From Candidatus Micrarchaeota archaeon (GTDB lineage: Archaea; Micrarchaeota; Micrarchaeia; Anstonellales; Bilamarchaeaceae), in contig JBDRLQ010000003.1 in the NCBI GenBank assembly GCA_043812915.1, positions 128,047-192,046 of the forward strand: 64,000 bases of DNA, written 5' to 3'. Below are positions 13,586-60,359 of the stretch, one piece after another. Numbering within the stretch: position 1 is the first letter of the stretch; every line of letters starts with the position of its first letter. A program made the translations under genes and the position numbers. Below the pieces are notes generated by a model. The model was given only the letters and a program-made list of their open reading frames with translations. It was not told the DNA's origin and made no database searches.

Positions 13586-15070
13586 ATGAGCTCAAAACTA
13601 CAAAAAAGCCGGAATCTGTCTACAGAAATCAGGAACCCGAATCGCAAGTTCGGGACACGCACAACCCTAAAGGAGTCCATTCTTCTTTCTGCCGCTTCAA
13701 TTGCGGCGACAGTTATATTCACGCTCAGCCCTGCATACGCGCAGAGCGCCAAATGCAGCGCGCGCGTCGTTCCTGGGGAAATTGGAGAGCGCTTCTCGCT
13801 AAAGACAAGCGGAACGAAAGTTGAAGGGCTGACACTGAGGTTTTCCATCCCTGTCAAAGGCTCGCACGGGGAGCTGGCAATCAGCGGGCCCTTCGCGGAC
13901 AGCCTTGTCACAATGCCTGAAGATGTAAGATTCACCGTCCTGAGCAGCAACCTCACAAAGGGCAGGACCCTTCTTTCCTCATCGCGCAGGGCGACATTCG
14001 GATGCATTAGCGGGGATTCAGAAGCCCCGAGCCCTGTTCCAATAGAATCAATCCAGAAGCTTGTTCGTGAAGCTGGGAGCAGGATGAAGCAGCTTGATGC
14101 AACGAGGAAACTAACAGGGGTAAGCTCAAAGACCAAGGGCGATGTTTCAACATTCATATCAAAGCGCGGGCCCCTGATGTCCGCAATCAAGGGCCGTGAT
14201 ATCCCTGGTTTGCAGAGGGCAATCGAGCAGGCAGATTCGCACCTTCTGACCATGAGGTCTGAAGTGGATGCATCGGCCCAGGCGATAAAATCAGAGGCGC
14301 TTGATTTGTCCAGGCAGCTCCGCGAAGCTGCCTCAGAGCTTCCGGAAGGGAGGCAGAAAAGGGCTGCAATCCAATTGGCAGACTCTGTTGAGGCGGAGGC
14401 GGGCCGGGACCAGGTTCGCGTAAGCGCGCTTACAAAGGGCATGGCGAGCATTGGGCGCGCGATTCCGCAGGCCCGGGATGCGGCCGACGCTGCGCGGGAG
14501 AGGCAGGCGACCGCAGACGCAGCTGAAAAGGCACAGGCGGATGCCGCTGAAAAAGTTCGTGTTGAAGCAAGGACGGAAGCTGCAAAAGTGCATGGAATGG
14601 ACAGATGCACGGGGGATTTCCCAGTAAGCATAATCACAGGAAAGGGCGCGGTGGAGAGATATAAGCTCGCTGTTCCGCTTAAGCTTGTCGTGGAGTCCGG
14701 AGGCACTGCGACAAAGGATGGCACGGACCACCCGATAAGGGCCGTCCTGGAGGTTAGCGCCAAATCCATCCTTCCTCAGCATGTCAAAGGCACAATCGAA
14801 TCTGCCACAAAGACAATCAGAAGGAGCCTTGATACAAGATGCCCGGCTGGAAATCCGGCTTCAATCGAAGTAATCGAAACGAATCTGGGAGTTGCCATCA
14901 TGGGACTCCGAAACAAGATGATTAGCAAAATCGATGGCATTACGGCTGATGAGGATGGCAATCCGGAGCGCCCTCTGCTCCTGAAAGTGAGGGGGCTTCT
15001 TGCCGGCAGGTCGAAGGCCGAGGAAGATGCCGCAATATCTGCCGCCAAGCAGAAAGCAGGTGTCCGGTAA
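13586..15070 (+). CDS. Hypothetical secreted protein with a central Ala/Glu/Arg/Lys coiled coil
   Basis: The track ORF starts at GTG 13574. ATG 13586 fits the TATA spacing. The signal-like segment is ESILLSAASIAATVIFTLSPAYAQS. Beta-rich flanks surround a central helical region (ATADAAEKAQADAAEKVRVEARTEAAKV). The 428-aa minus ORF 13483..14769 is a Ser/Ala-rich shadow. Confidence 0.5.
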   Translation: MSSKLQKSRNLSTEIRNPNRKFGTRTTLKESILLSAASIAATVIFTLSPAYAQSAKCSARVVPGEIGERFSLKTSGTKVEGLTLRFSIPVKGSHGELAISGPFADSLVTMPEDVRFTVLSSNLTKGRTLLSSSRRATFGCISGDSEAPSPVPIESIQKLVREAGSRMKQLDATRKLTGVSSKTKGDVSTFISKRGPLMSAIKGRDIPGLQRAIEQADSHLLTMRSEVDASAQAIKSEALDLSRQLREAASELPEGRQKRAAIQLADSVEAEAGRDQVRVSALTKGMASIGRAIPQARDAADAARERQATADAAEKAQADAAEKVRVEARTEAAKVHGMDRCTGDFPVSIITGKGAVERYKLAVPLKLVVESGGTATKDGTDHPIRAVLEVSAKSILPQHVKGTIESATKTIRRSLDTRCPAGNPASIEVIETNLGVAIMGLRNKMISKIDGITADEDGNPERPLLLKVRGLLAGRSKAEEDAAISAAKQKAGVR

Positions 15071-15115
15071 GCCCTTTTTTCTTTGATAATGCCTTTCAGG
15101 CCTTGGCGCAAGGCC
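15071..15115 (+). terminator. T-tract followed by a perfect 7-bp hairpin (ggccttg-gcg-caaggcc)
   Basis: gcccttttttctttg at 15071-15085. The inverted repeat at 15099-15115 lies directly before the next TATA. Confidence 0.4.
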
Positions 15116-15116
15116 G

Positions 15117-15127
15117 CTTTTAAATAT
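15117..15127 (+). promoter_or_regulatory. TATA-box-like element (cttttaaatat) upstream of the lysine-free ORF
   Basis: Its centre is about 26 nt upstream of ATG 15148, so the mRNA is predicted to be leaderless. Confidence 0.5.
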
Positions 15128-15147
15128 CTTTGTTCCTTATCTTTTTC

Positions 15148-17238
15148 ATGGCAGCGCCACCACAACCTCGCGGAATACAGTGCACTGTTGCTATCCAGGA
15201 AATGAATGCCCAGGAGGCCTCCAGGGCAATGGCGAACCCGTTGCAGCGCGAGGGGGAGCGGATTTCAGTCCGTCTGGTTGTCCCGGCAAGGACCGGCTAT
15301 CTTTCCGCCGAGATCCCGGCACAGGCGGTGAATGAGGTGCTTGATTGGGCCTCACATATCCAGAGCCCGCAGGATAGGCGGGATTTTATCAGCCAGTGGC
15401 TCAGCGACAATATCGCGCGCATCAGGCGTGCCCATGACGGCGCCGCCAGGGATGCAACTGCCTTCGATTTCAGCGTTGTTCCTGTCCGGGAAGTGCGCAT
15501 TGTGCGCAGTATCGAGGATATAGTCCCAAGTCTGACTTTCGATCCCACCGCCATTGCCGCGCTCGTTGCCCGGGATGGCCAGGTGGCGGTAGCGAGCCGG
15601 GACACGCGCATATTCTCCGAGAGACGGCAGGCGCTTACTACTTTGGGCAGGGGAATCGGCCGCCTGCTCAGGCTCCACCAAAGAACCAGCGGAGGGCTCA
15701 ACCAGGATCAGATCAGGCTTCTTATCGGCCAGGTCCCTGTCGATCAGATAGAAACACTCCTCCGGCCGCTCGGCCTTGAGCGCAGGGACAGTGCAGCACT
15801 GCAGGAACTGCTTGCAGGTGGCCAGAGGACAACCGCCGGCGATGTCGTGATGGTGCCCGGAATCATCGTGAGAATAAACCAGCTGATGATGGACGAGCCT
15901 GAAAGGGACAGGATTTCCCCGGTCACCCTTGACCGGCGCGCCGCTGATGAGGCAAGGGAGCGCATGACTGAACTCCGGCGCATCGGAAGCGCTGAGGGGA
16001 GAGCGCTTGCCACCAGCATCGAGCGGGCCATCGGAACAGTCCGGAGGCCGCAGCTGCTTTCACTTATAGAGGATGCCGACAGGCTAATCAGCGCCGCTGG
16101 GAGCAGGGACGAAGCTGCTGAAGTCGCTGCAGTGAGGCAGGCAAGCGAGCCTGCACGGACTGCCGCCTCCCGCCTCAGGGAACTTGCCAGGGATACGAGG
16201 GTCGGAAATCTCATGGCATCTGCAACCGTCGCTGCCCTCTCAATCCAGCAGGAACTCGGGCGCGAGGCTCCAAGGTCATCCAGGCTAAGGCAGCTCACAA
16301 CAGAAGCACAGTTACTAATCACGCGCATGGAAGCTGCCATAGCATCGGCCGAAGAGGCTGCTGGAAGGCAGGCTTTGCTTACAGAAAGGCGGGGAATCGC
16401 GCAGGCCAGGATAGCAACCATAGACGGGCTGCAGTCCCAGGATGGGGTTACTCCGGCGCACAGGAGGTCTGCAGCAGCCCTGCTAAGCCAGCTCCGCGCC
16501 GCAAGGGAAGGAACGGATGCCGCACTCCTGCAAAGGAGAGTTGCCGAGGCGGACACCCTGATTGCGCTTTTGCGCGCTGACATTGACAGGCATGCTGCCC
16601 GGGCCCCGCCCGCAGCGCCAACCGGCACCCTGAGGCAGCCCACTGCCGTTGCGGCAGAGCACAGCCAGCTCCTGCAGGAATTCGCCAGGCTCCTCCATCG
16701 GCGCACTGACTTCTACTCCCGCCGCCGGGAAAATCCGATAGTGCTTCACCTTGCGAACCTGTCAGAAACCTACCGGGTTGATGCTGGCGATGTCCTCTAT
16801 GACGGCGGAGTGAGGGAAGCATCCCTCGATTATGAGGGACAGACATTCAGGTATCTTACATTCATTACCGCGGCCGATGTCAGGCAGGTCTATCGTGGCC
16901 TTCCTGAGAGATACAGGACAGCTGCACGGGATGCCCGATTCCGTCCTGCCGGTGCTTCTGCCCTCAGCATGCTAGCGCTTCCTTCGGCCCGTCAGGGCGC
17001 TTCTCCTACTGTGGACGGAGAATTGCTCGAGCAGATACGCACCAGGCTCACAACGCAGTATCTTGCCCAGGCCCGCCGCGCTCTTGAGGCGGCAGGGCTC
17101 AATATGGGTACAAGGATTCAGCTGGAAGGCGGTGCGGAAAGGACCATCGGCCAGATTGTCCAGGACCAGGTTACCGAGGCGGTCCGCGGCGTGCTCCAGG
17201 ATATCACCACAGTTACTACAATAAGGATGGAGCCGTGA
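15148..17238 (+). CDS. Hypothetical large Ala/Arg/Leu/Glu-rich helical protein with no lysine
   Basis: The track ORF begins at TTG 15130. ATG 15148 fits the TATA. I find no K anywhere in the 697-aa product and see no signal peptide. The region is GC-rich and carries a 320-aa shadow ORF on the minus strand. I recognise no family. Confidence 0.55.
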   Translation: MAAPPQPRGIQCTVAIQEMNAQEASRAMANPLQREGERISVRLVVPARTGYLSAEIPAQAVNEVLDWASHIQSPQDRRDFISQWLSDNIARIRRAHDGAARDATAFDFSVVPVREVRIVRSIEDIVPSLTFDPTAIAALVARDGQVAVASRDTRIFSERRQALTTLGRGIGRLLRLHQRTSGGLNQDQIRLLIGQVPVDQIETLLRPLGLERRDSAALQELLAGGQRTTAGDVVMVPGIIVRINQLMMDEPERDRISPVTLDRRAADEARERMTELRRIGSAEGRALATSIERAIGTVRRPQLLSLIEDADRLISAAGSRDEAAEVAAVRQASEPARTAASRLRELARDTRVGNLMASATVAALSIQQELGREAPRSSRLRQLTTEAQLLITRMEAAIASAEEAAGRQALLTERRGIAQARIATIDGLQSQDGVTPAHRRSAAALLSQLRAAREGTDAALLQRRVAEADTLIALLRADIDRHAARAPPAAPTGTLRQPTAVAAEHSQLLQEFARLLHRRTDFYSRRRENPIVLHLANLSETYRVDAGDVLYDGGVREASLDYEGQTFRYLTFITAADVRQVYRGLPERYRTAARDARFRPAGASALSMLALPSARQGASPTVDGELLEQIRTRLTTQYLAQARRALEAAGLNMGTRIQLEGGAERTIGQIVQDQVTEAVRGVLQDITTVTTIRMEP

Positions 17239-24182: not shown

Positions 24183-24303
24183 AGCCTCAGGGGGTATTCG
24201 AAACCCCGACCTCCCGCTTTCCTTGGAGGAGGGCAGTGAACGCAGTTCACAAAAACCTCCCGCTTACAAGGCGGGCGCTCTGACCAGGCTGAGCTACTGA
24301 GGC
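24183..24303 (-). tRNA. tRNA-Thr (anticodon UGU) with a 46-nt intron
   Basis: Manual fold of the minus strand: acceptor GCCTCAG/CTGAGGC, D arm GCTC-AGCCTGGTCA-GAGC, anticodon arm CCCGC-CTTGTAA-GCGGG, variable AGGTC, T arm GGGGT-TTCGAAT-ACCCC, discriminator T. The mature length is 75 nt and no CCA is encoded. With a canonical 37/38 splice the intron is 24219..24264. It contains a 6-bp hairpin, GTGAAC-TGC-GTTCAC. Confidence 0.8.
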
Positions 24304-48159: not shown

Positions 48160-50205
48160 CTATCTCTCGCCGACTATCCTTACATGGCCGTGCTCTTTCT
48201 CGTAAATTTCCCCTTTTCGGAGAAGCTCGGTGATTATCCTTCTTGCGACTTTGTCGTCAAGATCATATTTGGCGGCATCCTGGATAATCTCCTCAATGTC
48301 CGCAGTGTCTTTCTGCCGCAGGTGCTCCCTTACGATTTCCATTATGGTGTCCGTGCGCTGCAGCTTCTCCCTCTCTGATCTGGGCTTTCCTGTGGCTACG
48401 ACATCCACATCGAACGCGCCCGTCTCTTTGTCCGTCATAATCTGCCGCATTACATAGTTGAACAGCTCTATTGCCACATTGGCGTCATTCTCATCGACCG
48501 AATGGCTCAGGCGAAGCTTCGCGTTGGCCTCAGCCAGCCTGACTAAGCCCTCAAGATAACGCGGGGTGATTGCGACAGAGCCGGCTTCCTTGCTCTTTCC
48601 CCTCAAATCAACGTAGAATTCCCTGATTTTCTCAGATGCCGGCATGGTGAGCTTCGGGAAGACGGTTCTCCTCGCGAACGATATATACTTCCTTAGAAGG
48701 TCCTTGTCAAGTTCCTCAATCTCAGACTTCTCCTCCTGGCCCATGTGCGTTGCCAGGATATGCTTTGCCAGTTTCGAGTCCCTTTCCTCATCAAGGACGT
48801 CTACAATCGGGAATATCAGGTCGAACCTGGAGAGCAGGGTCGGGGGCACATCGAATTGGTCAGCCAGATTCTTCGTCTGGTCGAACCTGCCATACTTGGG
48901 GTTGGCAGCAGCGAGGATTGCGGTTTTGGTCTTGAACTTGGCGACTATGCCTGCCTTGGCGACAGAGACGGTCTGCGTTTCCATCACTTCATGCAGGGCA
49001 GAGCGGTCCTCCTCCGGAATCTTGTCGAACTCGTCCACCTGCGCGCTTCCACCGCTCGCAAGCACAAGCGCTCCAGCCTTCAGGGTCCAGCCCCCTTCCC
49101 CGAGCTCATCCTTCTCAGCTGTAACTGTAAGTCCTGCTGAAGACACGCTTTTTCCGCTCACATATATGCTTTTTGGGGCGATTTCTGAAACGGAGTGCAG
49201 GAATCTCGATTTGGCAATGCCCGGGTCACCGATAAGCAGGATATGGATATCATCCCTGATTTTGGCGCCGCCCTTCATGGTCTTCCCTTTCGTCCCTCCG
49301 AAAAGCTGAAGCGCGATTGCGCGTTTCACTTCATCATGCCCGTAGATGAAGGATGCGATGGAATGCCGGATTATCTGGTCTATGTTCGGGTCCTTTGAAA
49401 GGTCGATAAGGCGCTGCTCATCCTCATTGGTGATTTCAATCTCCTCGAAATCCCGCTTCATGCTCTTTGCGCTGTTGACTTCGATGAACCTTCCATACAC
49501 CAGCTCCTGCTTCTGCTTCACCTTCAGTGGCGGCCTGAGCCTCAGCGTCCCTACGACCTCGATATTGTCCCCAGGAGAGACGGTGTTGACCATGTCGTCC
49601 TCAAGGTATAGCTCGATATGCGCAGCCGGAGCACCTCCGCGCACCCTCTCAAGCAATTCCTGCACCTCTGCCCTCTGGATATCAGTGAATGTGCTCTGCT
49701 CCTCATCCTGCTGCAGGCTCATCTTCTTGCAGCTGTCGCAGCGCTTTGGCGGAACGAAGTTTTTCCCGACAAACAGGCGGATTTCAGAGTCGCACAGCTG
49801 GCATTTGTACACCGCCACCTTCACCCTGTGCATCACCTCTGCCCGGCGCGTGATGACCCCCTTGAAATAGACCATCTCATTGATGCTCTTGGAGCCGATA
49901 TGCTCAATCATCGTCTCATTGGAGCACATATTGAAGAACCTGACATGCGGGGCGAACTTCTGCCCGGTCGGTATGATAAGGTTCATCTCCAGTATGGACT
50001 CCTTTGCGGCATCCAGGACAACGTCCGGGTCCTTTACCAGCTTATCCGCCAGCTCGGGGTCGAATTTCTCAAGGTCAAGATAGTCCACCTCGATGCTCCT
50101 GATGGTCGGATAATTGAGGAGCACCCTGTTGACCTTCTCCTTATATACTAAAGTGAAGAAATCATGGAACAGGGAGATTAGGGGTGACAGGTCTACTTTT
50201 TCCAT
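48160..50205 (-). CDS. mcm: Replicative helicase MCM
   Basis: The N-terminal OB/Zn domain contains CQLCDS..CDSC. The AAA+ core shows Walker A ILLIGDPGIAKS, Walker B DEFDK and the arginine finger SRFDLIF. A C-terminal winged helix is present. The start is set at ATG 50205 (MEKVDLSPL); the track extension to 50442 overlaps apgM and looks non-coding. Confidence 0.9.
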   Translation of the reverse strand: MEKVDLSPLISLFHDFFTLVYKEKVNRVLLNYPTIRSIEVDYLDLEKFDPELADKLVKDPDVVLDAAKESILEMNLIIPTGQKFAPHVRFFNMCSNETMIEHIGSKSINEMVYFKGVITRRAEVMHRVKVAVYKCQLCDSEIRLFVGKNFVPPKRCDSCKKMSLQQDEEQSTFTDIQRAEVQELLERVRGGAPAAHIELYLEDDMVNTVSPGDNIEVVGTLRLRPPLKVKQKQELVYGRFIEVNSAKSMKRDFEEIEITNEDEQRLIDLSKDPNIDQIIRHSIASFIYGHDEVKRAIALQLFGGTKGKTMKGGAKIRDDIHILLIGDPGIAKSRFLHSVSEIAPKSIYVSGKSVSSAGLTVTAEKDELGEGGWTLKAGALVLASGGSAQVDEFDKIPEEDRSALHEVMETQTVSVAKAGIVAKFKTKTAILAAANPKYGRFDQTKNLADQFDVPPTLLSRFDLIFPIVDVLDEERDSKLAKHILATHMGQEEKSEIEELDKDLLRKYISFARRTVFPKLTMPASEKIREFYVDLRGKSKEAGSVAITPRYLEGLVRLAEANAKLRLSHSVDENDANVAIELFNYVMRQIMTDKETGAFDVDVVATGKPRSEREKLQRTDTIMEIVREHLRQKDTADIEEIIQDAAKYDLDDKVARRIITELLRKGEIYEKEHGHVRIVGER

Positions 50206-50278
50206 ATGACCACGCGAATAATTAGTGGTATTACTAACGCCTAGCAAGTCTTTAATACTTTGTTTCGTATAGTGGGCT

Positions 50279-51484
50279 ATGAATAAGGTCATTCTTTTTA
50301 TCATAGACGGACTTGGGGACCTACCGACGCCAAAGACGCCTCTCCAGGCTGCAAAAACTCCAAATCTTGACAAGATTGCACACAAAGGAATAACCGGCCT
50401 GCTCGCTCCCTTGGGAAGGGGGGTCGTGCCTGGCAGCGACACCTCTCATCTTGAGCTTCTTGGATATGACCCGAGGCTCTTTTACTGCGGAAGGGGCCCC
50501 CTGGAAGCCCTTGGGATAGGGATGGAGCTGGAAGAGGGCGATGTCGCCTTCAGGGCCAACTTCGCCACTGTCAAAGACGGCAAGATTGTGGATAGGAGAG
50601 CCGGCAGGATTGACACCGCCTCGGCCTCAAAGCTCGCTGAGGGCCTTTCTATGGAGATCGAGGGCACCCGGGTGATGTTCCAGAACTCAGTTGAGCACCG
50701 CGGCGCTGTTGTACTCCGCGGAACAGGCATAAGCCACATGGTCAGCAGCACCGACGCCAAGCCGGGCTACCCGCCCGCGCTAAGCCATCCCTTTGACCAG
50801 TCCGGGGAATCCCAGAAGACCGCCAGGATAGTGAATACCTACATGCAGAAAGTCATGGAGAAGCTTGGCAAGTCCCCCGAGAATGAAAGCAGGGTGAAAA
50901 AGGGCCTTCCACCTGCCAACGCCCTGCTGCTTCGGGGCGCCGGCTCATTCGTTGAAGTGCCCACCTTCGAGGAGCGCTTTTCTGTAAAAGCCGCCTGTGT
51001 CGCGGGCGGAGCGCTATACCGCGGAGTGGCTAAATATCTGGGCATGGATGTCTTCATGCTAGCCGGGGATACGGGCGATAAGAACACCGACCTGAAAGCC
51101 AAGGCTATCGCGGTCGTAAAGGCCCTGGAGGACTATGACCTGCTTTTCGTGCACGTCAAGGGGTGCGACAACTACGGACATGACGGCGATTTCAAGGGCA
51201 AGACGGAAATGCTGGAGCGCATTGACCGGGATATGATATCCGCCCTCGCAAAAACCGGCGCGGACCTTGTTATTACCGGGGACCATTCCACGCCCTGCAT
51301 CAGGAAGGCTCACTCAGGCCACGAAGTCCCAATCCTGTTCTTCGGCGACAACGAGAGATATGATAATGTGAAGAAGTTCGATGAAATCAGCTGCATGGAT
51401 GGCGGCCTTGGGCATATTGAGGGAAAAGACGTAATGCCCATGATTCTGAACATGCTTGGAAAAGCGAGGAAATACGGGAGCTAG
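50279..51484 (+). CDS. apgM: 2,3-bisphosphoglycerate-independent phosphoglycerate mutase (archaeal ApgM type)
   Basis: 401 aa: ILFIIDGLGDLP, TPNLDKIA, FVHVKGCDNYGHDGD, TGDHSTP. Confidence 0.85.
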   Translation: MNKVILFIIDGLGDLPTPKTPLQAAKTPNLDKIAHKGITGLLAPLGRGVVPGSDTSHLELLGYDPRLFYCGRGPLEALGIGMELEEGDVAFRANFATVKDGKIVDRRAGRIDTASASKLAEGLSMEIEGTRVMFQNSVEHRGAVVLRGTGISHMVSSTDAKPGYPPALSHPFDQSGESQKTARIVNTYMQKVMEKLGKSPENESRVKKGLPPANALLLRGAGSFVEVPTFEERFSVKAACVAGGALYRGVAKYLGMDVFMLAGDTGDKNTDLKAKAIAVVKALEDYDLLFVHVKGCDNYGHDGDFKGKTEMLERIDRDMISALAKTGADLVITGDHSTPCIRKAHSGHEVPILFFGDNERYDNVKKFDEISCMDGGLGHIEGKDVMPMILNMLGKARKYGS

Positions 51485-52500
51485 GCCCTCTTGAGCCTTG
51501 CCAGGACTTCTGGCCTGGCCGTTTTACTCTTTCTTATTGTTTCATGCCTGGCTCTTAGCCTCCTTCTGGACTGGCAGATCTCGAGGTCGGTACAGTCCTG
51601 GTTGAATCCCTGGATTCTCAGCACAACTCCCTGCTCACGGAGCTTTCTTGTAAATACATGCGCCCAATGATTCCTTCGCGGGTCCTGGCTGGCCTCATAA
51701 AGTCCCTTTTCAAGCTTCCTGATGGTCCAGTCATCCGGATACCCGAAGAACCTCACTTCCTCCAGCCTGTCGAGGATGGCTGTGGCTTCTGACAATATGT
51801 CTTCCCTCTTGCAGCCCTCCACCATCGGCACGATCCAGTAGATGAGGTCGTTCCTGCGCTCATCAATAATCTGCGGGAGCAGTTTCCGTATCCACGGAAG
51901 CGCATTCCCATCAGCCATTGCCTTGCAGCAGACGATTGCCAGCTTCTCCAGGGTGCCGGGGCAGGTCATGCCCAGCTCCTTCCCCCCCAAAGAATGCAGG
52001 AGCTCCTCTGCCCGCTTCGATGAGAATGGGTCCCTCAATGCTGCGATGAGCGGAGCGATAATCGTGATTCCCCTATTCCCCGCAATCTCCACAAGCAGCC
52101 CGAAGGCGAATTCCGTCCTTCGCATATGCAGCGCTTTTTCATCTTCGTCCAGCCCACTCTTTCCTGCAGTGCCAGCAAGGCATGAAACGAGGGCGCCGGC
52201 AATCCCGTGCCTGGCCTTCAGGCTGGGCTTGAGGCTTTCCTGCTCTTCCAGGGAGAGGATAAGCCTCCTTAGTATCTCCTGCTTGCCCGGGTCTCCAGCA
52301 TTCTTGAAGTGCATCACGGCCTTGCGGACTATCAGGTGGTCGAGCTTTGACTCTGCAGCCATCCCAACCAATATCACGGCATTATCCGGATTGGTGCCAA
52401 GCGAATCGGCGAGCCTGAATATCTCCCTGCGGGCATCTGCTACCATTTCCACCAAACCTGTGTATGCAAATATCTTGGTGTGGAAATGTTTAAAAATCAT
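51481..52500 (-). CDS. Hypothetical helical-repeat protein
   Basis: 339 aa, predominantly helical with a basic C-terminal tail. I recognise no family. It lies downstream of the pilin gene on the same strand but after a T-rich terminator. The + ORF 51842..52522 is a Ser-rich shadow. Confidence 0.45.
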   Translation of the reverse strand: MIFKHFHTKIFAYTGLVEMVADARREIFRLADSLGTNPDNAVILVGMAAESKLDHLIVRKAVMHFKNAGDPGKQEILRRLILSLEEQESLKPSLKARHGIAGALVSCLAGTAGKSGLDEDEKALHMRRTEFAFGLLVEIAGNRGITIIAPLIAALRDPFSSKRAEELLHSLGGKELGMTCPGTLEKLAIVCCKAMADGNALPWIRKLLPQIIDERRNDLIYWIVPMVEGCKREDILSEATAILDRLEEVRFFGYPDDWTIRKLEKGLYEASQDPRRNHWAHVFTRKLREQGVVLRIQGFNQDCTDLEICQSRRRLRARHETIRKSKTARPEVLARLKRA

Positions 52501-52561: not shown

Positions 52562-53125
52562 TCAGCTTGTTTCCTCAAGCACGTTCCCTGTGAGCTTCGC
52601 GGTAGCCTTCCTTGCGGGCGCGTCTGGCACCTCATCATGGAAGTTGTACCACACCACCAGGAATCCATTGAAGTTTGAATTCGGGGTGAGTTCTACCTGG
52701 TTCCCTTCAGCATCAATGCAGGGCAGCCTATTCGGACTTCCTATAAGGAGGCTTCCGCCTGACCCAATGGTTCCGTCTGCGTCTGCCGGCAAATTAGCGG
52801 AATCAATCGCATACTCGTCATCCAACCGTATGTCTCCTGCAGGCGCGGTCGTGCAAAGAACGTGCGAAACCGTTATCTGCTGGCCCTGGTAGTTGTTCAG
52901 CTGGAACGTCACATGGACGTTGTCCGAGGCATCAGCCACGATGACCGGCTTTCGGTCCTGGCAGCTGAACCCAGATTCCTGGAACAGGCAGCTCTCTGGA
53001 GCCCTTAGGAACTGTGGAAGGAATCCCACCAGTATCACGAGAACAATGACAATGACGAGGATGGCCCAGCCATAGGTCATCAGGTATTCCATAGCGGCCT
53101 GCCCTTTCTTTTTCTTATCAAACAT
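52562..53125 (-). CDS. Archaeal type IV pilin-like protein (class III signal peptide)
   Basis: The N-terminus MFDKKKKGQAAMEYLMTYGWAILVIVIVLVILVGFL has the KG/Q-x-x-x-E-Y-L prepilin motif followed by a hydrophobic helix. The rest is a beta-rich globular domain with Cys pairs. Confidence 0.7.
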   Translation of the reverse strand: MFDKKKKGQAAMEYLMTYGWAILVIVIVLVILVGFLPQFLRAPESCLFQESGFSCQDRKPVIVADASDNVHVTFQLNNYQGQQITVSHVLCTTAPAGDIRLDDEYAIDSANLPADADGTIGSGGSLLIGSPNRLPCIDAEGNQVELTPNSNFNGFLVVWYNFHDEVPDAPARKATAKLTGNVLEETS

Positions 53126-53136
53126 AGCATTTCACC

Positions 53137-54216
53137 TTACATAAACATCGAGAAGAACGATGTGAGCACGTTATCTGTGAACCAGTAAATCAGGTACGAG
53201 GCCACCAGGAGGAACGGGAAGTATTTCAGCCCCTGGCTCTTGGTGCCGGTCCTAATCACGCTGATGATGAATGAAGAAATCAGCGCCGTCACGAACATCG
53301 TCGGAAGCGCAAAATACAGGAAATCCGCCGAAGTGATTATCGGCCCTGAGAGCGTGAATGTGGATGCCGCCCCGAATGCCCCTCCGCCTACGTTCGAGCT
53401 GGATGGAAGATGCGGGGAGATATTCTCGAACACCTGGATTAGCTTGGTGGCTACCGCGAACAGGAACGGGGTTCCGATTGCGGATGCGAAAAGCACGAAA
53501 ATCTCGTACATGATGAGCGAGGCCGCAATCTCCTTCTTCATAATGATGGTGTTGCGCACGTCATCGGCGGTCCTTTCAAGCACTTCAGTGAGTTCGCCTC
53601 CGGTCGCGGTGGCCTGCTTCAGGAGCAGGATTGTCCTGTTGAACACCTTGGAATCGAACCTCTTTGCCAGTTTGTCGAGGGAAATCTCCAGAGATTCACC
53701 GCTGAACGAGCCCTTGATGACATGCCTCACGTCTTCTGAGAGCAGCCCGAATTCAGGCTTCGCGGAATACCACATCGCCTGGTCAAGCGTCATCCCTGCC
53801 TTTATGTTGGAAGCGACAAGGGTTAGGAAATCTGGCAGGGACTCTTCCAGCACGTTCCTCCTGTTCTCCGCCTTCATGATAAGGTATGTGGACATCAGCA
53901 CCATGGTAGCCAGATAGACGATTATAAGCATCACAATCAGGAGCAGCAGGGCGATGATCACAACTGGCAGCTCGAAAGGCAGTGCGCCATTCATAAGAGA
54001 AACAAGGGTCTGCCTCACAGGCTCGAAAGCCATTAGGATAAGGGTGATGAAGAATGCCACGACCAGGATGTTTATCGCGGCGTATCCTGCGAATGCCTCT
54101 GCGGGCAAATCAACGCCCGCAGTGCTCAGTTCCTTTTCCAGGCGCCTGACGCGGTTCCTGCTGAAGAAGAACCTTCCGGCATATTCAAAGAGCGATTCGT
54201 TGACCATTGTAATCAC
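53137..54216 (-). CDS. Type II secretion system F-domain platform protein (TadC/EpdK-like, single domain)
   Basis: 359 aa. The T2SSF-like cytoplasmic helical domain reads LPDFLTLVASNIKAGMTLDQAMWYSA...LLKQATATGGELTEVLERTADDV, flanked by TM segments. Confidence 0.7.
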   Translation of the reverse strand: MITMVNESLFEYAGRFFFSRNRVRRLEKELSTAGVDLPAEAFAGYAAINILVVAFFITLILMAFEPVRQTLVSLMNGALPFELPVVIIALLLLIVMLIIVYLATMVLMSTYLIMKAENRRNVLEESLPDFLTLVASNIKAGMTLDQAMWYSAKPEFGLLSEDVRHVIKGSFSGESLEISLDKLAKRFDSKVFNRTILLLKQATATGGELTEVLERTADDVRNTIIMKKEIAASLIMYEIFVLFASAIGTPFLFAVATKLIQVFENISPHLPSSSNVGGGAFGAASTFTLSGPIITSADFLYFALPTMFVTALISSFIISVIRTGTKSQGLKYFPFLLVASYLIYWFTDNVLTSFFSMFM

Positions 54217-55071
54217 CTATATGAGGTATCTGGGCCTGGAGCTTTCCATAACCCCAAGGAACAGGAACTGCACTATGGCAATCAGGAAGAACGTCGGAAC
54301 GAGTATCACTGATGTGAGGCCCAGCTCCCCGCCGCTGATTGCGGAGAATACCACCGTCGCGAGCACCACGCCCAATGAGGGCACGATGATGCCAAAGACC
54401 ATGTAGAACATCACAATCGGGGTTAGCTTCTGGCTGTATTCCTTGAGCTGAATCATCTGCTCCTTTGATATCTGGTTGAGAACCGACTCCAGTGCCTCGC
54501 CGACATCAGCGCCGCTCGCCAGGGAGTTGGCTATCTGCATCAGAATCCTCACAAAGTATGGAGAGGGATTCTCGTGGGCCACTTCCCGGATGGCCTGGGT
54601 GGTCGGGACACCGACAATCACCTTATCCACAATCTTCACGAACTCCTTGCTGACCGCCCCGTAGCCGCTTGAGGCACCTACGAACGTGTCGAAGAGTGGC
54701 ATGCCGGACTGCAGCGCAATCACGATGTGTCTGCATGCGAATACAATCTCATAATTAAGCTCCTTCCTTCTCTTGATTATGGCTGCTTCAGGATAGAGCA
54801 TGAAATAGCCGAAGACTGCCAGCGGGAAGACGAATGCGAGAAGGACAATCCATAAGAGGCTTATGCCATTGGTGAACATGAAAAGCGCTGAGACAAGCAG
54901 CAGCGAAAGGCTGATGAACACTGTTGATGTCACGGCCTTGAGCAGGAAGGTTATAGGCTGCTCTTTGGAATCAGCCATCCGGAGCTTCTTTCTCAGATCC
55001 GGGAACCGTGGGGCAATCGTCTCGGCTATCGAGAGGAAAACTCCCCTTTTTCTTGAAGTCGTATCGGCCAT
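54217..55071 (-). CDS. Type II secretion system F-domain platform protein (TadB/EpdJ-like, single domain)
   Basis: 284 aa: ACRHIVIALQSGMPLFDTFVGASSGYGAVSKEFVKIVDKVIVGVPTTQAIREVA...MQIANSLASGADVGEALESV, flanked by TM segments. The stop and start abut the next gene. Confidence 0.7.
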   Translation of the reverse strand: MADTTSRKRGVFLSIAETIAPRFPDLRKKLRMADSKEQPITFLLKAVTSTVFISLSLLLVSALFMFTNGISLLWIVLLAFVFPLAVFGYFMLYPEAAIIKRRKELNYEIVFACRHIVIALQSGMPLFDTFVGASSGYGAVSKEFVKIVDKVIVGVPTTQAIREVAHENPSPYFVRILMQIANSLASGADVGEALESVLNQISKEQMIQLKEYSQKLTPIVMFYMVFGIIVPSLGVVLATVVFSAISGGELGLTSVILVPTFFLIAIVQFLFLGVMESSRPRYLI

Positions 55072-55072
55072 T

Positions 55073-56713
55073 TTACCCCTCTGATTCGCTGAAATACTTC
55101 CTAATCATATCATCACTTAAACCCTTCTCCTTCGCCATGAGCGCCTTGGCTTTAAGGAGCGCTTCTGCCTTCCCGACATTCCTGCGCTCGTACTTCTTGT
55201 AGTAGTCCCTGTCCTTCGAGTGGAGGTAGAAGAGCAGCGTGCCCTCGTCCATCTCGTTTATCTCAAATATCCTGTCCTGGTCCTGCGTGGCTTTATCCTC
55301 CTTTTTGGGTTTCGTCTCAATCTCCTCTTCCTTTTTCTCATCTTTCTCGACGAAAACCTCGCGGCCCGCGGCCTCTATGACATTATCTATTTCCTTAGTG
55401 ACTATGTTCCTGATTGAGGAAAGCTCTTCAGGATATGAGCTTTCAATCTCATTCATCCTCTTCCCCGCCGTGGATGCGGTCTTGGTGTCCTTCGTGCCAA
55501 GGCTCTCCTGGAGCCTCTTCAGCTCGGCCATGTGCTTCTTCATCAGGAAGTCCTCATACTTCTCGACGATATTCGGAATCTGCTCTGACAATGAAGTGAG
55601 CGTGAACACGAGGGCCTCGTACCTCTCCTTCTTCTCCTTCTCATCGCTAAGCCCCTTCATGCTCTCATAGAATCTGGCCTTGGCGGTATTGAGCTGTTCC
55701 CTGAACGGCCCAGTAATCTTGTCCTTTGTGGAGGCTATCTCGGATTCCTGGCTCTTCACGAGCGAGTCAAGGACCTGCGCATTGGCCATGGTGTCCGTGA
55801 CCTTCTTGCCCTTGGCGGCTGTGCCTTTTACCGCCTTCCCTCCGAGCATGTTCTTGAGTATCGCAATCTCTGCCTTGATCTCTTCCCTGCGGTTGACGCT
55901 CTTCTCCTTGAATAGCTGCTTTGTCAGCTCGAGCATCTTCTTCTTGAGCTCGGTCTCATTGACATTCTCGCCCAGGGCCCCCTTTACAGTGCCTTCAATC
56001 TCCTCGAACTTCCTGCTCGCAGCCTCATCCGGGTCTTCCTGGAGGATTGGGGGTATGGCGATGACCATCTTCTTCTCGATCTTCTGTTCTGCCCTGGGCT
56101 CTGCCGCCTCCGGCTTCTTTGGCTCCTCCTCTTTTTCCGGAGTCTCCAATTCGATTTCCGGGTGCTCCTTCCTCTCAAGGGTCTCGAATTCTATGGCCTC
56201 GGGCCCCTCTTCTTCGGCCGCCATCCCCTCTTTTGGTTTTTTGCCAGCCCTCTCCCTTTCTTCAGCAGGAATGGTTTCGAATTCGATTCCCTGCGATTTG
56301 GGTCTCTCAACTTCGGGCGGCCGGGCAGCCTCGGGCTTTCCTTCCGCGGCATTCTTCTGGTCCTTGCGCATCTCGACGCCGATTTTCTCAGCCATCTCAA
56401 CGCTTTCAGTGCTCATCTCCTTGAGCCTGCTCTCCACCTCCTCGCTCTTTTCAGTTTCGTTGGCGGCTGGAATGGGCGTTTTCTCGGCTGCCATCGCCTC
56501 CGCGCCATAGATGTCGAGCTTCGCGGCGCTCCTGATCTTCTCCGTCCTCTCAAAAAGGTTGAGCAGGTCCCGGTAATTCATGTCAATATATTCCTGCGGC
56601 GACAAATCTACCGCCATCTCCACGCGCACGTCTCCTGTGTATGGCTTGTACTCAAGAGCCTTTTTCTCAAGCTTCTTGGCATCATCCTGAACATCGTGGA
56701 AATTGTCATCCAT
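55073..56713 (-). CDS. Hypothetical Glu/Lys-rich protein embedded in the pilus operon
   Basis: 546 aa with no TM segment. It contains three copies of an IEFET/IELET motif, long charged helical stretches and a short globular C-terminus (LLFYLHSKDRDYYKKYERRNVGKAEALLKAKALMAKEKGLSDDMIRKYF). It is tightly packed between the ATPase and platform genes. Confidence 0.55.
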   Translation of the reverse strand: MDDNFHDVQDDAKKLEKKALEYKPYTGDVRVEMAVDLSPQEYIDMNYRDLLNLFERTEKIRSAAKLDIYGAEAMAAEKTPIPAANETEKSEEVESRLKEMSTESVEMAEKIGVEMRKDQKNAAEGKPEAARPPEVERPKSQGIEFETIPAEERERAGKKPKEGMAAEEEGPEAIEFETLERKEHPEIELETPEKEEEPKKPEAAEPRAEQKIEKKMVIAIPPILQEDPDEAASRKFEEIEGTVKGALGENVNETELKKKMLELTKQLFKEKSVNRREEIKAEIAILKNMLGGKAVKGTAAKGKKVTDTMANAQVLDSLVKSQESEIASTKDKITGPFREQLNTAKARFYESMKGLSDEKEKKERYEALVFTLTSLSEQIPNIVEKYEDFLMKKHMAELKRLQESLGTKDTKTASTAGKRMNEIESSYPEELSSIRNIVTKEIDNVIEAAGREVFVEKDEKKEEEIETKPKKEDKATQDQDRIFEINEMDEGTLLFYLHSKDRDYYKKYERRNVGKAEALLKAKALMAKEKGLSDDMIRKYFSESEG

Positions 56714-56729
56714 GCTCGCGCACCCTCAA

Positions 56730-58376
56730 TTATCTTTTGAACTGCCAGCGGGCGTTCTTCTTCACCGCATCAAGAACGAATGCCGGGTCCAGGTAATAAT
56801 GGGCTACGATCTCACCCACTTCATCAACGTCCTCGTAGTCGTTCTTGACCATCCAGTTCAGCACGCTGATTTTCTCATCGACATCGTCTTCGATTTCCTT
56901 CTCGTCCATTCCCGCGTACAGCGAAAGCAGCTCCACAAGCCGCTCCATCTTCCCGACCCCCTTGACCCGGTCGTTCTTGACGTCCCAGCGGTAGAGCGTA
57001 TTCTCAGTGCCCTTCTTGGTGACCTCTGCGAATTCAAGCACCCTCCTGATATTGAATCTCCTGTGCCTGAAGGTGACCACGATTCCGGCAAGCGCATCAA
57101 GCATCTCCTTGGGCACATTCACCGGCGGGTTCGTAAGCCTTGAGATTGTCTGCTCGGCATTGTCCGCGTGCAATGTCGCGTAAACAGAGTGGCCAGTGTG
57201 CATGGCCTCGAACATCACTTCAGCTTCCCTCTGCCTCCTGATTTCTCCGACCAGTATGCGGTCAGGCCTCTGACGCAGGGCGTTCACCATCAAGTCAAGC
57301 ATTGTGACCTCGCCCTTCCCCTCAGGGTTCGGCTCCCTGACCACCATCGGCACCCATTGGAGGAACGAGGGCAGTGTCAGCTCCCGTGTATCCTCGATGC
57401 TGATAATCCTCTGGTTGGCCGGGATAAGCCCCGCCATCGCGTTCAGGAAAGACGTCTTACCTGAACCTGTGCCTCCGGAAACAAGCAGTGAGAGCTCGTT
57501 CTGGATGCAGAGCCATACTATTGCCGCAACTTCAGGGGAAATCGTCTTGGACTTCAGGAAATTGGTAATGGTCCAGGGGTTTCTGGAGAACTTCCTGATT
57601 GTTAGCGTGTTTCCGAAGTTTGAAATCGGGAACAGGGTCGCGTTCACACGGTCCCCGTTCGGAAGGTGGGCGTCCATCATCGGGTTGAGGACGTTTATCT
57701 GCCTTCCGATTTTCCTGGCAATCATGCTCGAATAATCATATACCATATTCTCGTTCTTGATGTGCAGGTTTGTCTTGCACCATCCGAATGTCTTGTGGTA
57801 AACCCAGACAGGTTCGTTCGCGTTGTTGACAGCGACTTCTTCCAGGTAGTCGTCCGAGAGGAGCGCTTCAATCTCGCCTAGGCCCAGGGTGTGCTGGATG
57901 AGGTAGACTGCAAGAATCTCTTTCTTGTCGGGTGGCAGTGACGGGAAGCTCCTCTGCAGTATGTTGTTCGCAGAAAGCAGGAACTTCGCCTTCACTTCCT
58001 CGTATTTCTTCGGATCGAGTATTTCGCTGATGTCCAGTTTGACATCTGTTACCAACTCTCCCTTGAGCTTAGTCTCAAGGATGAGCTTGGTCCCCTCAGC
58101 GATGCCTGGGATGGTGACTTCGTATTTCGGGACGAAATCCCGGCCACGGATAATCCTGATTTCTACCGGAAGGCCCTCGCTGTTGTATGAGTATGCTGCA
58201 AGGAGTGCGGACTTTGCCCTCGGGACTTCTGCGGGCGGGGGTGCTGCCGGGGCCTTTATGGGGGGCGGCGCTCCAGCGCCTTCAGCCTCGGATTCCTTCT
58301 TTTCCGAGACCCTCTTCATCTCCTCGGCCTTCAATTTCTCCTTTATCTTTTCTTTAATGTTATCTCCCTTCGGCAT
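56730..58376 (-). CDS. Type II/IV secretion system ATPase (FlaI/ArlI / TadA / EpdL-like pilus assembly ATPase)
   Basis: Walker A is LVSGGTGSGKTSFLNAM (codons at about 57453-57476). Also present are Walker B/Asp box LVGEIR and the His box HTGHSVYATLHA. The N-terminus is Lys/Pro/Ala-rich. The track starts at GTG 58388; ATG 58376, preceded by GGTGAT, is more likely. Confidence 0.85.
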   Translation of the reverse strand: MPKGDNIKEKIKEKLKAEEMKRVSEKKESEAEGAGAPPPIKAPAAPPPAEVPRAKSALLAAYSYNSEGLPVEIRIIRGRDFVPKYEVTIPGIAEGTKLILETKLKGELVTDVKLDISEILDPKKYEEVKAKFLLSANNILQRSFPSLPPDKKEILAVYLIQHTLGLGEIEALLSDDYLEEVAVNNANEPVWVYHKTFGWCKTNLHIKNENMVYDYSSMIARKIGRQINVLNPMMDAHLPNGDRVNATLFPISNFGNTLTIRKFSRNPWTITNFLKSKTISPEVAAIVWLCIQNELSLLVSGGTGSGKTSFLNAMAGLIPANQRIISIEDTRELTLPSFLQWVPMVVREPNPEGKGEVTMLDLMVNALRQRPDRILVGEIRRQREAEVMFEAMHTGHSVYATLHADNAEQTISRLTNPPVNVPKEMLDALAGIVVTFRHRRFNIRRVLEFAEVTKKGTENTLYRWDVKNDRVKGVGKMERLVELLSLYAGMDEKEIEDDVDEKISVLNWMVKNDYEDVDEVGEIVAHYYLDPAFVLDAVKKNARWQFKR

Positions 58377-58464
58377 TTCAATCACCACGAGGAACCTCTT
58401 TCATAAGGCGGTTCCTACGGTTTCTCCACCTTGGGTGGATGCTCATCATGAATTGGTTCGTGAA

Positions 58465-58473
58465 GTTTATAAG
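58465..58473 (-). promoter_or_regulatory. TATA-box-like element (cttataaac on the minus strand) upstream of the ATPase gene
   Basis: Lies 9-17 nt after the stop of the upstream coiled-coil gene and predicts a roughly 60-70 nt leader containing two hairpins. Confidence 0.4.
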
Positions 58474-58481
58474 AGCTCCAG

Positions 58482-60203
58482 TCATGATTCTTCCCACAGT
58501 TTTTTGATAAGTCTCTTTAGTTCTGTCCTCTTTCTCTTGAATTCCTTCTCCTCATCCTTTGTGAGCTCAAGCCTGTCCTTCACTTCCTTTGGCGTTGGAG
58601 CTTCCCCGCTGCTGGGTTCTGTTGGCGGCGGCGCTCCACCGCCTCCGCGCAGCTCGAGCAGCCTCGCTTCCCTTGAGAGCAGCGTCACTCTCTTGTTGAG
58701 GTTCTCGGAAGCGCTCTTGAGCTCCTGGAGAGAAGCCCGGATGTTATCGAGAGCCTCCCTCTTGGCGCGCACTTCTTCGGCAAGCTTGCTTACCTCTCCA
58801 ACTTCCTTGCCCTTAAGGGTGCTCTTGAACTTCGCCATCTCTTCCTTGGCTTCCTTCTTTGCCGCCAGGACATCCTCCTTCGCTTTCTTCATCTCATTAT
58901 CAAGGCCTTCCAGCTCCTTCCGGTAGTTGTCGATTGAGGGTGCTATTCTCTCCTTGATTTTCTGGAATGTTAAGTATGTCGATTTTTCATCCTCTAGCGA
59001 AGCCGAGAGGCTGTCCGATTCCCTGCGCAGCGACTCCACCTTGTGGCCAATCCTCTTGCTCAGCTCCTCGAATTCCCTGATTGTCACCTGCCTTCCGCCC
59101 ACGGCATCAAGGATTTTCTTGAGCGAGTTGTTCTGCTCCTCAACCCTCGCCTCTTCCTCCTTGATTTTCTCAACTTCATCCGCCAGTTTCTTGGCTGACG
59201 GGAAGCGCGTAAGTATCCCTCGTGCGACTTCCAGGGAATCGGCGAACCTTTCAACGGTATCCGCGTTCTCCCGAACGTGCTTTACTATCTCACTGCTCCT
59301 TTTCTCCAGCACGTCCGCCTCTTTCAGCGTGGCTGCAACATCCTTCTGGAGTTTCGTCATCTGTTTTTCGTGGCCCTTGAGCGAGGAGGTAACCTCACTC
59401 AGGATTCCCTGGGTCTCCTGGATGTTGATTAATTCCTCCCTCAGGCGCGCATTCCTGCTCTTGATGTCCGTGAACTCCTTCCGCATGGCCTCGAATTTAT
59501 TCTTGATTTCATGCATGTCCGGGAGCTTGACGTCCTGGGGCAGGCCCTTTTGCTGCTGGGCGGTCCTTTCCCTGAGCGCATCCCCTTCCTTCTCCAACTC
59601 GGCAAGCTCTTTTTTGAGCTGCTCTATCCTCTCAAGCGAGAGCGTGCTCTTTCCCGCCTTTATTCCCTTGCCCATGGTGTCCAGTTCCGACAATGCTTCG
59701 GAAAGCGACTGCTTCACTTCGTCAAGCCTGCCGGCAAGCTCGTCCAGCTTGTCTGACTTGGTGTCGAAAGAGCCTTCTGCCAGCGCCCTTTTTGCAAGTG
59801 CGGGCGAGGCCGCTTTCTCAAGCTTCTCCAGGCGCGGGTGAACTTTCTTGTAGAATTCCTCGAATTGCGCTTCGAGTTCAGAAATGCTTTCTATCTCCGG
59901 AGAAATCCGGGTCTTTACTCCTTCCACTTCCTTCTGCAGGGTCTCCCTCTCGGAATAGAACGATTCCCTCTCCTCCTCTATTTCTGATTCGGTCGGGGTG
60001 ACCCACACAATGTAGATTTTTGTGAGCCGGTACTCCATGGAAAGGATTCCCTCCTCCTCGAGCACCCTTGCCCACTCCTCGATTGTTGAGATAGGTATAT
60101 TCAGGAGCCGCGAGCATTCCTCAAGTTCGATTTTCCCCTTCCTTTTGACAAGACGCACTAATGCATCTACGCCTGTAGTGATGAGGAGTTCATCGAATTC
60201 CAT
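58482..60203 (-). CDS. Hypothetical protein: N-terminal winged-helix-like module plus a ~480-aa coiled coil
   Basis: 573 aa. The N-terminus GVDALVRLVKRKGKIELEECSRLLNIPISTIEEWARVLEEEGILSMEY is followed by a continuous heptad-like Glu/Lys/Leu-rich sequence. It is the first gene of the pilus gene string. A TATA-like attaataaag at 60225-60234 is centred about 27 nt upstream of ATG 60203. Confidence 0.55.
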   Translation of the reverse strand: MEFDELLITTGVDALVRLVKRKGKIELEECSRLLNIPISTIEEWARVLEEEGILSMEYRLTKIYIVWVTPTESEIEEERESFYSERETLQKEVEGVKTRISPEIESISELEAQFEEFYKKVHPRLEKLEKAASPALAKRALAEGSFDTKSDKLDELAGRLDEVKQSLSEALSELDTMGKGIKAGKSTLSLERIEQLKKELAELEKEGDALRERTAQQQKGLPQDVKLPDMHEIKNKFEAMRKEFTDIKSRNARLREELINIQETQGILSEVTSSLKGHEKQMTKLQKDVAATLKEADVLEKRSSEIVKHVRENADTVERFADSLEVARGILTRFPSAKKLADEVEKIKEEEARVEEQNNSLKKILDAVGGRQVTIREFEELSKRIGHKVESLRRESDSLSASLEDEKSTYLTFQKIKERIAPSIDNYRKELEGLDNEMKKAKEDVLAAKKEAKEEMAKFKSTLKGKEVGEVSKLAEEVRAKREALDNIRASLQELKSASENLNKRVTLLSREARLLELRGGGGAPPPTEPSSGEAPTPKEVKDRLELTKDEEKEFKRKRTELKRLIKKLWEES

Positions 60204-60224
60204 GAGCTAGATATCATTCAGCAC

Positions 60225-60325
60225 ATTAATAAAGATTATGACGGTCTCCGGGAAGTTATGGCGCCGTTGATGCTGTTTTTTTCATGATATGTGTGAGGGA
60301 ACTGAGACAAGTTAATAAACATTTT
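60225..60325. promoter_or_regulatory. Divergent promoter region with two TATA-like boxes
   Basis: attaataaag (60225-60234) serves the minus-strand gene at 60203. gttaataaacatttt (60311-60325) serves the plus-strand gene at 60351/60360. Confidence 0.4.
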
Positions 60326-60359
60326 GGAGATAGATAAGTAGAAACTCAGTGTGGTGCCG

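Follow-up and report, generated by a model that had tools for sequence, protein, structure and literature searches.

Gene organization of the pilus locus

In this study, a 64-kb stretch of DNA from the genome of a Candidatus Micrarchaeota archaeon (contig C3, positions 128047-192046; hereafter the window) was analyzed, which carries a predicted type IV pilus (T4P) operon at window positions 52562-60203. The genome comprises 1.3 Mb on 26 contigs (numbered with the prefix C) and is 89.6% complete; the names carried by close homologues also point to Micrarchaeota. The operon consists of six open reading frames (ORFs) on the minus strand. In gene order, these encode a winged-helix protein with a long helical rod (winged-helix/coiled-coil protein, wH-CC; 573 amino acids, aa), an ATPase, a Glu/Lys-rich protein of 546 aa (here called X), two platform proteins, and a pilin (Table 1). 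An earlier note on this DNA, made from the sequence alone, had given this gene order with these protein lengths and had described the junctions as very tight; all six ORFs are present as described, and the gaps calculated from the coordinates are 93, 16, 1, 0, and 11 nucleotides (nt). Comparison with related loci indicates that the core pilus motor of DPANN archaea nearly always comes with a dedicated winged-helix protein, and that in Micrarchaeota a further protein, specific to this lineage, was inserted between motor and platform.

Table 1. Genes and features of the pilus locus, given in positions of the 64-kb window
Feature	Positions	Strand	Basis
wH-CC protein, 573 aa	58482-60203	-	ORF; AlphaFold2 winged helix and long helices
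FlaI/GspE2/CpaF-type ATPase, 552 aa	56730-58388	-	T2SSE, FlaI, and TadA matches; Walker A
X protein, 546 aa	55073-56713	-	Glu/Lys-rich ORF; no Pfam or NCBIfam family
Platform half 1 (TadB/EpdJ-like), 284 aa	54217-55071	-	One T2SSF domain
Platform half 2 (TadC/EpdK-like), 359 aa	53137-54216	-	One T2SSF domain
Pilin, 187 aa	52562-53125	-	Class III signal, read directly and by regex scan
Multi-winged-helix acidic protein, 511 aa	60351-61886	+	Pfam HTH_47 and TrmB
Divergent intergenic region with two TATA-like boxes	60204-60350	none	Direct reading

ATPase, platform proteins, and pilins

By homology, the ATPase, the two platform proteins, the pilins, and a prepilin peptidase form the predicted core machine of a T4P. 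The ATPase matched the Pfam model T2SSE (E=4e-40) and the NCBIfam models FlaI (E=9e-85, which is under the equivalog cut-off of that model) and TadA (E=2e-56). Its nearest solved structures are GspE2 of A. fulgidus (2oap, E=1.7e-66), FlaI of S. acidocaldarius (4ii7, E=3.9e-61), and CpaF (E=4e-49). Its Walker A motif lies at residue 305, and it carries an N-terminal extension that is K/E-rich and Pro-rich; an alternative ATG start is located at position 58376. In a search of the 89.6%-complete genome, it was the only ATPase of the T2SSE family. For the comparison across genomes, ATPase orthologues were taken from two contigs with homologues of the 546-aa protein, from 30 Micrarchaeota loci, and from 80 named loci of the genome collection; loci (L) and families (f) are referred to by number where they have to be told apart.

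Both platform proteins have transmembrane (TM)-like segments, and each carries a single T2SSF domain over the Pfam cut-off (E=1e-16 for the 284-aa protein and E=7e-15 for the 359-aa protein). The former matches the N-terminal half of UpsF (positions 29-250), while the latter matches its C-terminal half (positions 237-482) and also the C-terminal part of ArlJ. Across DPANN, the platform of about 100 related loci is encoded by two adjacent, separate T2SSF genes, so the split is not a frameshift artefact. The two-gene platform in the style of Tad and Epd systems, as proposed in the earlier note, was thereby confirmed, and its own reservation that a single gene might have been frameshifted no longer applies.

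The N-terminus of the operon pilin, MFDKKKKGQAAMEYLMTYGWAILVIVIVLVILVGF, represents a class III signal (KKKKG/QAAMEY), which precedes a hydrophobic helix and a globular domain of acidic character. Read further, the protein starts with MFDKKKKGQAAMEYLMTYGWAILV, with Gln at position +1 of the signal, and a TM-like segment covers residues 10-44. The pilin itself scores under the threshold of the Pfam model Class_IIIsignal (PF04021). In related loci, its orthologues are found at the same place; the one from family f2 starts with the identical motif GQAAMEYLMTYGWA. Further proteins with a G/Q..E signal are encoded at C20:21551-22072, at C12:38951-39403, and in a cluster of five genes on C11 (C11:3852-7483, minus strand), whose products of 171, 173, 143, 522, and 208 aa have class III-like signals and are probably minor pilins. 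All candidate pilins combine G/Q with Glu at position +5 (QAAME, QSAIE, QVSTE, QVATE, QASIE), and one of them, encoded at C12:38951-39403, passes PF04021 (E=8.7e-6). A Peptidase_A24 prepilin peptidase is encoded in one copy at C5:9220-10068 and scored over the cut-off both in the genome search (33 bits) and in the protein search (30 bits). The operon itself encodes no peptidase and only one pilin, just as had been noted before, and the proposed look elsewhere in the genome yielded the peptidase on C5 and pilin signals on C20, C12, and C11. About 3 kb from the five-gene cluster, C11 also contains an ORF of 2412 aa (C11:10523-17761, minus strand), which may encode a giant surface protein.

A plain FleN/MinD gene was not found in the approximately 90%-complete genome. 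Its only MinD/ParA-like (AAA_31) P-loop gene (C7:3401-4225, plus strand) contains two inserted CxxCxxCxxxC (2x[4Fe-4S]) ferredoxin motifs and is unlinked to the operon.

Structure and conservation of wH-CC

In the wH-CC protein, an acidic winged helix spans residues 1-67 and long helices span residues 72-520; a Pro/Gly linker (521-538) then leads to a conserved C-terminal amphipathic helix (ELxxLIxKLWEE). The AlphaFold2 (AF2) monomer model has a mean predicted local distance difference test (pLDDT) score of 68. With 16.8% Glu and 11.9% Lys, and with no TM segment (maximal 19-residue hydropathy 0.97), the protein is charged and soluble, in agreement with the earlier description; Sec, Tat, and class III signals as well as a Walker A motif are absent. 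The C-terminal helix is amphipathic (hydrophobic moment 0.65) with low hydrophobicity and is conserved within the order only; a membrane-targeting helix as in MinD or FtsA is a weak possibility for this part of the sequence. A Foldseek search of wH-CC against the PDB gave nothing at E<=0.001, the hits being winged-helix regulators and coiled-coil noise only. Searches of wH-CC and X against Pfam and NCBIfam likewise returned coiled-coil noise only (Snapin, EzrA, SMC, Rad50).

Homologues of wH-CC (n=178) were found, of which the closest 120 align nearly indel-free and have their first 20 residues conserved to about 97%. The wH-CC profile matched 132 of the 151 sampled genomes of the phylum, and outside f1, the family of the window, and f6 only its first ~170 positions matched. 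A homologue search seeded with a wH-CC homologue from Micrarchaeaceae stayed within Micrarchaeaceae; it was the search for related loci that extended beyond the phylum. The length of the rod varies, with proteins ranging from 73 to 862 aa, and in family f17 (L036 2944-3204, L037 10798-11019) the upstream gene encodes a winged helix of 73-86 aa alone, without any rod. Judged from these sequences, the core of the family is the acidic N-terminal winged helix.

The gene for wH-CC is located directly upstream of the ATPase gene in 68 of 77 Micrarchaeota loci and in 24 of 32 other DPANN loci; among the eight exceptions in the latter group, five have upstream DNA shorter than 1.5 kb. This upstream position on the same strand is kept in Micrarchaeota loci from the 13 families checked, except f2, and is also found in loci labelled Woesearchaeota, Nanoarchaeota/Nanobdellota, Aenigmatarchaeota, Nanohaloarchaea, and Parvarchaeota. 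The distance from the wH-CC stop to the ATPase start is usually between -4 and +30 nt with many 4-nt overlaps, which suggests translational coupling of the two genes.

Protein X and the slot between ATPase and platform

In X, an N-terminal helical module (residues 1-123) is followed by an acidic disordered linker with IEFET repeats (124-212). A compact helical domain occupies residues 220-460, and residues 478-546 form a C-terminal module. The AF2 monomer model is confident for residues 220-546 (pLDDT above 90), and residues 124-212 stay below 50. Glu and Lys make up 17.4% and 13.2% of the protein, and neither a TM segment nor a signal peptide nor a Walker A motif is present. The earlier note had spoken of two charged coiled-coil proteins; the charge was confirmed also for X, but X is not mainly coiled coil, as the model has a disordered acidic linker and a compact helical domain in place of a classic long coiled coil. 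The linker's first IEFE motif contains an invariant residue, E146. A Foldseek search against the PDB revealed no relative of X, only designed bundles and ClyA (best E=0.15), and a search of the X profile against PDB sequences gave only a chance match to bL9. X and wH-CC were also compared as possible paralogues, which was rejected (hhalign probability 0.2%).

Searching 1.84 billion representative proteins with the X profile gave 130 matches. The family is present in 34 of the 151 genomes of the phylum, essentially in two families of one order, and its gene always directly follows the ATPase gene; no occurrence elsewhere was found.

The position taken by X is occupied far more widely than X itself. 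In other DPANN, the median distance from the ATPase stop to the first platform gene is about 6 nt; most Micrarchaeota loci have 590-2300 nt here, and 66 of 69 have no less than 258 nt. The proteins encoded in this slot have 146 to 732 aa. Among them, slot proteins of 210-732 aa from families f4, f5, and f7 contain a detectable C-terminal X module, and slot proteins from f7 and f15 a detectable N-terminal one. The Micrarchaeota portion of the ATPase tree is composed of loci whose slot is filled, apart from a single loss in f3. Profiles of the two X modules (A2_N and A2_C) had no match in any non-Micrarchaeota locus, ATPase ORFs included, so the N-terminal module is not concealed as an ATPase extension in other DPANN. 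The slot is thus restricted to Micrarchaeota and older than the X family. Because slot and terminal modules recur across Micrarchaeota families, X is best read as a modular, lineage-specific insertion, which in its own family seems to have been enlarged by the linker and a new helical domain.

With the distribution of both proteins at hand, it can be judged whether wH-CC and X might be housekeeping factors, such as SMC/Rad50-like chromosome proteins or parts of a cytoskeleton, that merely lie beside pilus genes. Homologues are annotated as 'chromosome segregation ATPase' or 'SbcC', there are weak NCBIfam coiled-coil matches to SMC, Rad50, and ASRP (E=1e-12 to 1e-6), and one wH-CC paralogue lies outside any pilus locus. 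However, SMC and Rad50 have Walker A/B heads flanking the coiled coil, whereas Walker A motifs and ATPase heads are lacking in both wH-CC and X, and the NCBIfam coiled-coil matches reach at most 47 bits, far under the cut-offs of at least 300 bits. Also, the place beside the ATPase is kept across DPANN phyla whose ATPases are only about 50% identical, and X with its few relatives occurs only directly after the ATPase gene. We therefore regard a housekeeping role as very unlikely. The ortholog search suggested in the earlier note tied both large proteins to pilus genes across many genomes, and the SMC/Rad50-like factors without linkage to the pilus, which that note had named as a way in which it could be wrong, were not what was found.

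The position in the ATPase tree conflicts with the record label for L098 and L099 (labelled Micrarchaeota), L070 (Marsarchaeota), and L104 and L113 (Methanosarcinales): L098 and L099 cluster with other DPANN and have no X slot, and L070 falls inside Micrarchaeota. These metagenome-assembled genomes are probably mislabelled. Two loci of other DPANN have unusually long ATPase ORFs (L091 10534-12810, 775 aa; L113 4490-6751, 728 aa), with a second, distant ATPase-like gene (E about 1e-36) ~1 kb downstream; a platform gene was not detected in either locus.

Comparison with known systems

Conserved loci with genes for CpaF, TadC, and coiled-coil proteins (CCPs) have been described in 'cluster 2' DPANN and in Undinarchaeota (Hamm et al. 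2024, Nat Commun 15:6449, PMC11291902). These loci resemble the one studied here in that a gene for a coiled-coil protein adjoins genes for a CpaF-type ATPase and TadC-type proteins, and homologues of wH-CC hold the position of the CCP in Nanohaloarchaea (L115), Woesearchaeota, Nanoarchaeota, and Aenigmatarchaeota. Going by gene position, wH-CC is probably a homologue of the CCPs. The Micrarchaeota operon differs by its additional gene, X, between ATPase and platform, and the account of the loci in PMC11291902 does not include Micrarchaeota and makes no mention of an N-terminal winged helix. Because wH-CC by its position most likely belongs to the CCP family, this kind of accessory protein had already been reported, though not for Micrarchaeota and without the winged helix being recognised. 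The earlier note, to which neither accessory protein was known from Epd, Aap, Ups, or archaellum systems, was hence not fully right as regards wH-CC, which has a precedent. The general pattern of an accessory protein beside the DPANN pilus motor is thus published and recurs across DPANN; the present comparison extends wH-CC to Micrarchaeota, with the winged helix as its minimal core, and adds a slot for X that is specific to Micrarchaeota.

In the same account, the CCPs are predicted to be similar to the viral sigma-1 fibre (PDB 6GAO) and reported to be made by the cell, the CCPs of the Nanohaloarchaeum loci having been detected by proteomics (Hamm et al. 2024, PMC11291902). Accordingly, wH-CC could be considered as an exported sigma-1-like attachment fibre that is displayed or secreted by the pilus machine to touch the host, for which the long helical rods in its model would also be suitable. 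We consider this very unlikely. The protein has none of the export signals searched for and no hydrophobic segment, its N-terminus opens straight with the winged helix, and Foldseek gave no significant match to a fibre in the PDB. Moreover, f17 drops the rod entirely and keeps the winged helix. The finding cautions against taking the published CCPs for extracellular fibres.

Regarding the core machine, two TadC genes are typical of euryarchaeal clades 1 and 2 in the survey of Makarova, Koonin & Albers (2016, PMC4858521), and among the several lineage-specific cytoplasmic partners covered there, none resembles wH-CC or X as far as they are described. The Mia14 genome paper reports a Micrarchaeota locus with an ATPase (0170) and two TadC genes (0172 and 0173), leaves the intervening 0171 unlisted, and places the locus in the Methanococci/Thermococci clade ('clade 1'). 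Epd pili of Methanococcus maripaludis (EpdL, EpdJ/EpdK, and pilins processed by EppA) likewise have two separate TadC-like genes and minor pilins in a separate cluster; their pilins have Gln at +1 with a QxSxE-like motif, a type to which the candidate pilins described above may belong. They differ in that the Epd loci are listed without a winged-helix/rod protein or an X-like protein in the survey (PMC4858521), and in that searches of the genome studied here yielded neither DUF2341 adhesins nor a FleN/MinD gene. The split platform marks the operon as a putative Epd/Tad-like system, and the published assignment of the similarly ordered Mia14 locus would place its ATPase in the Epd clade.

The bacterial Tad/Flp pilus shares the ATPase family, as seen from the match to CpaF structures, and a platform split into two single-domain T2SSF proteins. 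Unlike in Tad/Flp systems, a ParA/MinD ATPase of the TadZ/CpaE type was not found here, there is no TadD/E/F/G set and no secretin (none being expected in an archaeon), and the pilins and the peptidase are archaeal. For halobacterial subclade 4F, Makarova et al. (2016) proposed a regulatory role for arCOG07564, which by its description is also a cytoplasmic coiled-coil protein tied to the ATPase and TadC of an archaeal T4P, but belongs to another ATPase clade and lineage. A functional analogy, and an analogy only, is to ArlX (FlaX) and ArlCDE, helical or coiled-coil cytoplasmic accessories whose genes accompany that of a FlaI-type ATPase and which are believed to encircle the motor or hold it in place. 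ArlX has an N-terminal TM anchor, whereas wH-CC has none and begins with the winged helix. Searches with Pfam, NCBIfam, and Foldseek showed no sequence or fold similarity to these scaffolds.

Proposed function of wH-CC and X

DPANN archaea need physical contact with their host, and type IV pili are prime candidates for making this contact. With moderate confidence, we propose that the locus is the only T4P assembly operon of the genome and of the Epd/Tad-like kind, that wH-CC and X are dedicated cytoplasmic accessories or a scaffold of the motor, and that the pilus most plausibly attaches to the host cell. In such a machine, the hexameric-type FlaI/GspE2/CpaF ATPase would power the two-protein, TadB/TadC-like membrane platform, which would assemble pilins bearing class III signals with Gln at +1. 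The pilins would be processed by the A24 prepilin peptidase encoded on another contig, and minor pilins would likewise be supplied from other contigs. A role as motor accessory or scaffold is the most likely one for both wH-CC and X. The acidic winged helix of wH-CC most likely docks on the ATPase and not on DNA. Its rod, which has a lineage-specific length and is very tightly constrained in the family of the window, may oligomerise or space the motor from another structure, so that wH-CC would serve as a scaffold in a role comparable to that of ArlX or ArlCDE. X would connect the ATPase to the platform, with its conserved N- and C-terminal modules and the invariant IEFE motif as probable contact points.

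The reading of the winged helix as a docking domain and not as a DNA reader rests on charge. In 95 homologous domains, the conserved charged positions of the third ('recognition') helix are acidic, with Glu in about 80% at position 42 and in about 90% at position 49, and no conserved basic residue accompanies them; W44 is invariant, and the domain has a median net charge of -3. Nevertheless, wH-CC, perhaps together with the divergently encoded 511-aa protein, might be a DNA-binding regulator of the pilus operon whose rod serves for oligomerisation only, and hence no part of the machine. The N-terminal fold is like that of ArsR, MarR, AspA, and TFE in Foldseek, there is a weak sequence match to Lrp/AsnC (E=0.016), and the gene adjoins the divergent region with two TATA-like boxes. 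Besides the acidic recognition helix, the frequent 4-nt overlaps with the ATPase start speak against a regulator, as they point to stoichiometric co-production, and a rod of 500 aa that is nearly indel-free would be unusual for a repressor. On balance, we consider a regulatory role unlikely, though it deserves to be kept in mind.

Several further observations weigh against wH-CC and X being dedicated motor accessories. The wing residue K62 of the winged helix is basic in 80% of the homologues, which together with the weak likeness to the DNA binders Lrp/AsnC and TFE is in line with a regulator. In family f2, the genes for wH-CC and for the divergent 4x winged-helix protein (511 aa in the window) are located 6-10 kb from the ATPase gene or on another contig, so the operonic link between wH-CC and ATPase is not obligatory; in these genomes the two winged-helix genes remain paired although apart from the ATPase, as would also be expected of regulators. 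The genome of the window encodes a wH-CC paralogue of 670 aa far from the pilus genes (C20:161-2173, plus strand), which shares the winged helix (E=1.3e-15) and further contains a highly acidic, disordered region, a coiled coil, and a poly-Lys/Arg tail. Its neighbors encode phosphoenolpyruvate carboxylase and argininosuccinate synthase, with no pilus link among them. Many Micrarchaeota genomes have a comparable second wH-CC match away from the pilus genes. Finally, f3 has an empty slot (L016, with 3 nt between the genes) and f17 a very small one, its gap between ATPase and platform being about 260 nt, so X is dispensable for the machine.

A more far-reaching version of the scaffold model would have wH-CC, X, and the 511-aa protein build a cytoplasmic cage, plate, or cone of fixed size under the membrane, which places the single pilus motor at the host contact site. 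The acidic winged helix would then be a hitherto unrecognised docking domain for T4P ATPases throughout DPANN, replacing TadZ/FleN or ArlX/ArlCDE in genomes without a FleN/MinD gene. We regard this version as speculative and rather doubtful. For the accessory role as such, Ca. Micrarchaeum sp. A_DKE, which is cultivated, carries the same arrangement (L112), and wH-CC and X are concrete targets for interaction studies.

Neighboring genes and further observations

The acidic 511-aa protein encoded divergently to wH-CC contains several winged-helix modules (HTH_47, E=9.5e-7; TrmB, E=6.4e-6), and its gene has this divergent position in most Micrarchaeota loci. The likeness of its modules to the winged helix of wH-CC is weak (hhalign probability 50% over 31 columns), and a genome search with the hidden Markov model of the wH-CC winged helix did not match the 511-aa protein. 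It is possibly a regulator or a partner of the operon. In the intergenic region between the two genes, the TATA-like A/T-rich boxes TTAATAAA at ~60226 and GTTAATAAAC at ~60312 are putative promoters.

Within the operon, the 93-nt spacer in front of the ATPase gene (58389-58481) contains the TATA-like sequence CTTATAAAC right behind the upstream stop codon as well as two hairpins, CCACC-CAA-GGTGG and AGGAACC...GGTTCCT. This spacer may hold an internal promoter or a leader. At the other end, a basic ORF of 339 aa (isoelectric point 9.3; 51481-52500, minus strand) begins 61 nt past the pilin gene and overlaps the end of the convergent apgM gene by 4 nt. Pfam and NCBIfam searches with this ORF gave no match. 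In distant relatives, the pilin gene is directly followed by apgM or by an unrelated gene of 186 aa on the opposite strand, so the 339-aa ORF is a local addition.

The single tRNA match of the window (24183-24303, minus strand) covers 121 bases for a model of 71 positions, and the tRNA gene therefore probably contains an intron. In the distant relative L003, an MCM gene beside the operon (13294-16851, 1185 aa) contains an intein with a LAGLIDADG endonuclease; the MCM gene of the window (48160-50442, 760 aa) is without intein.

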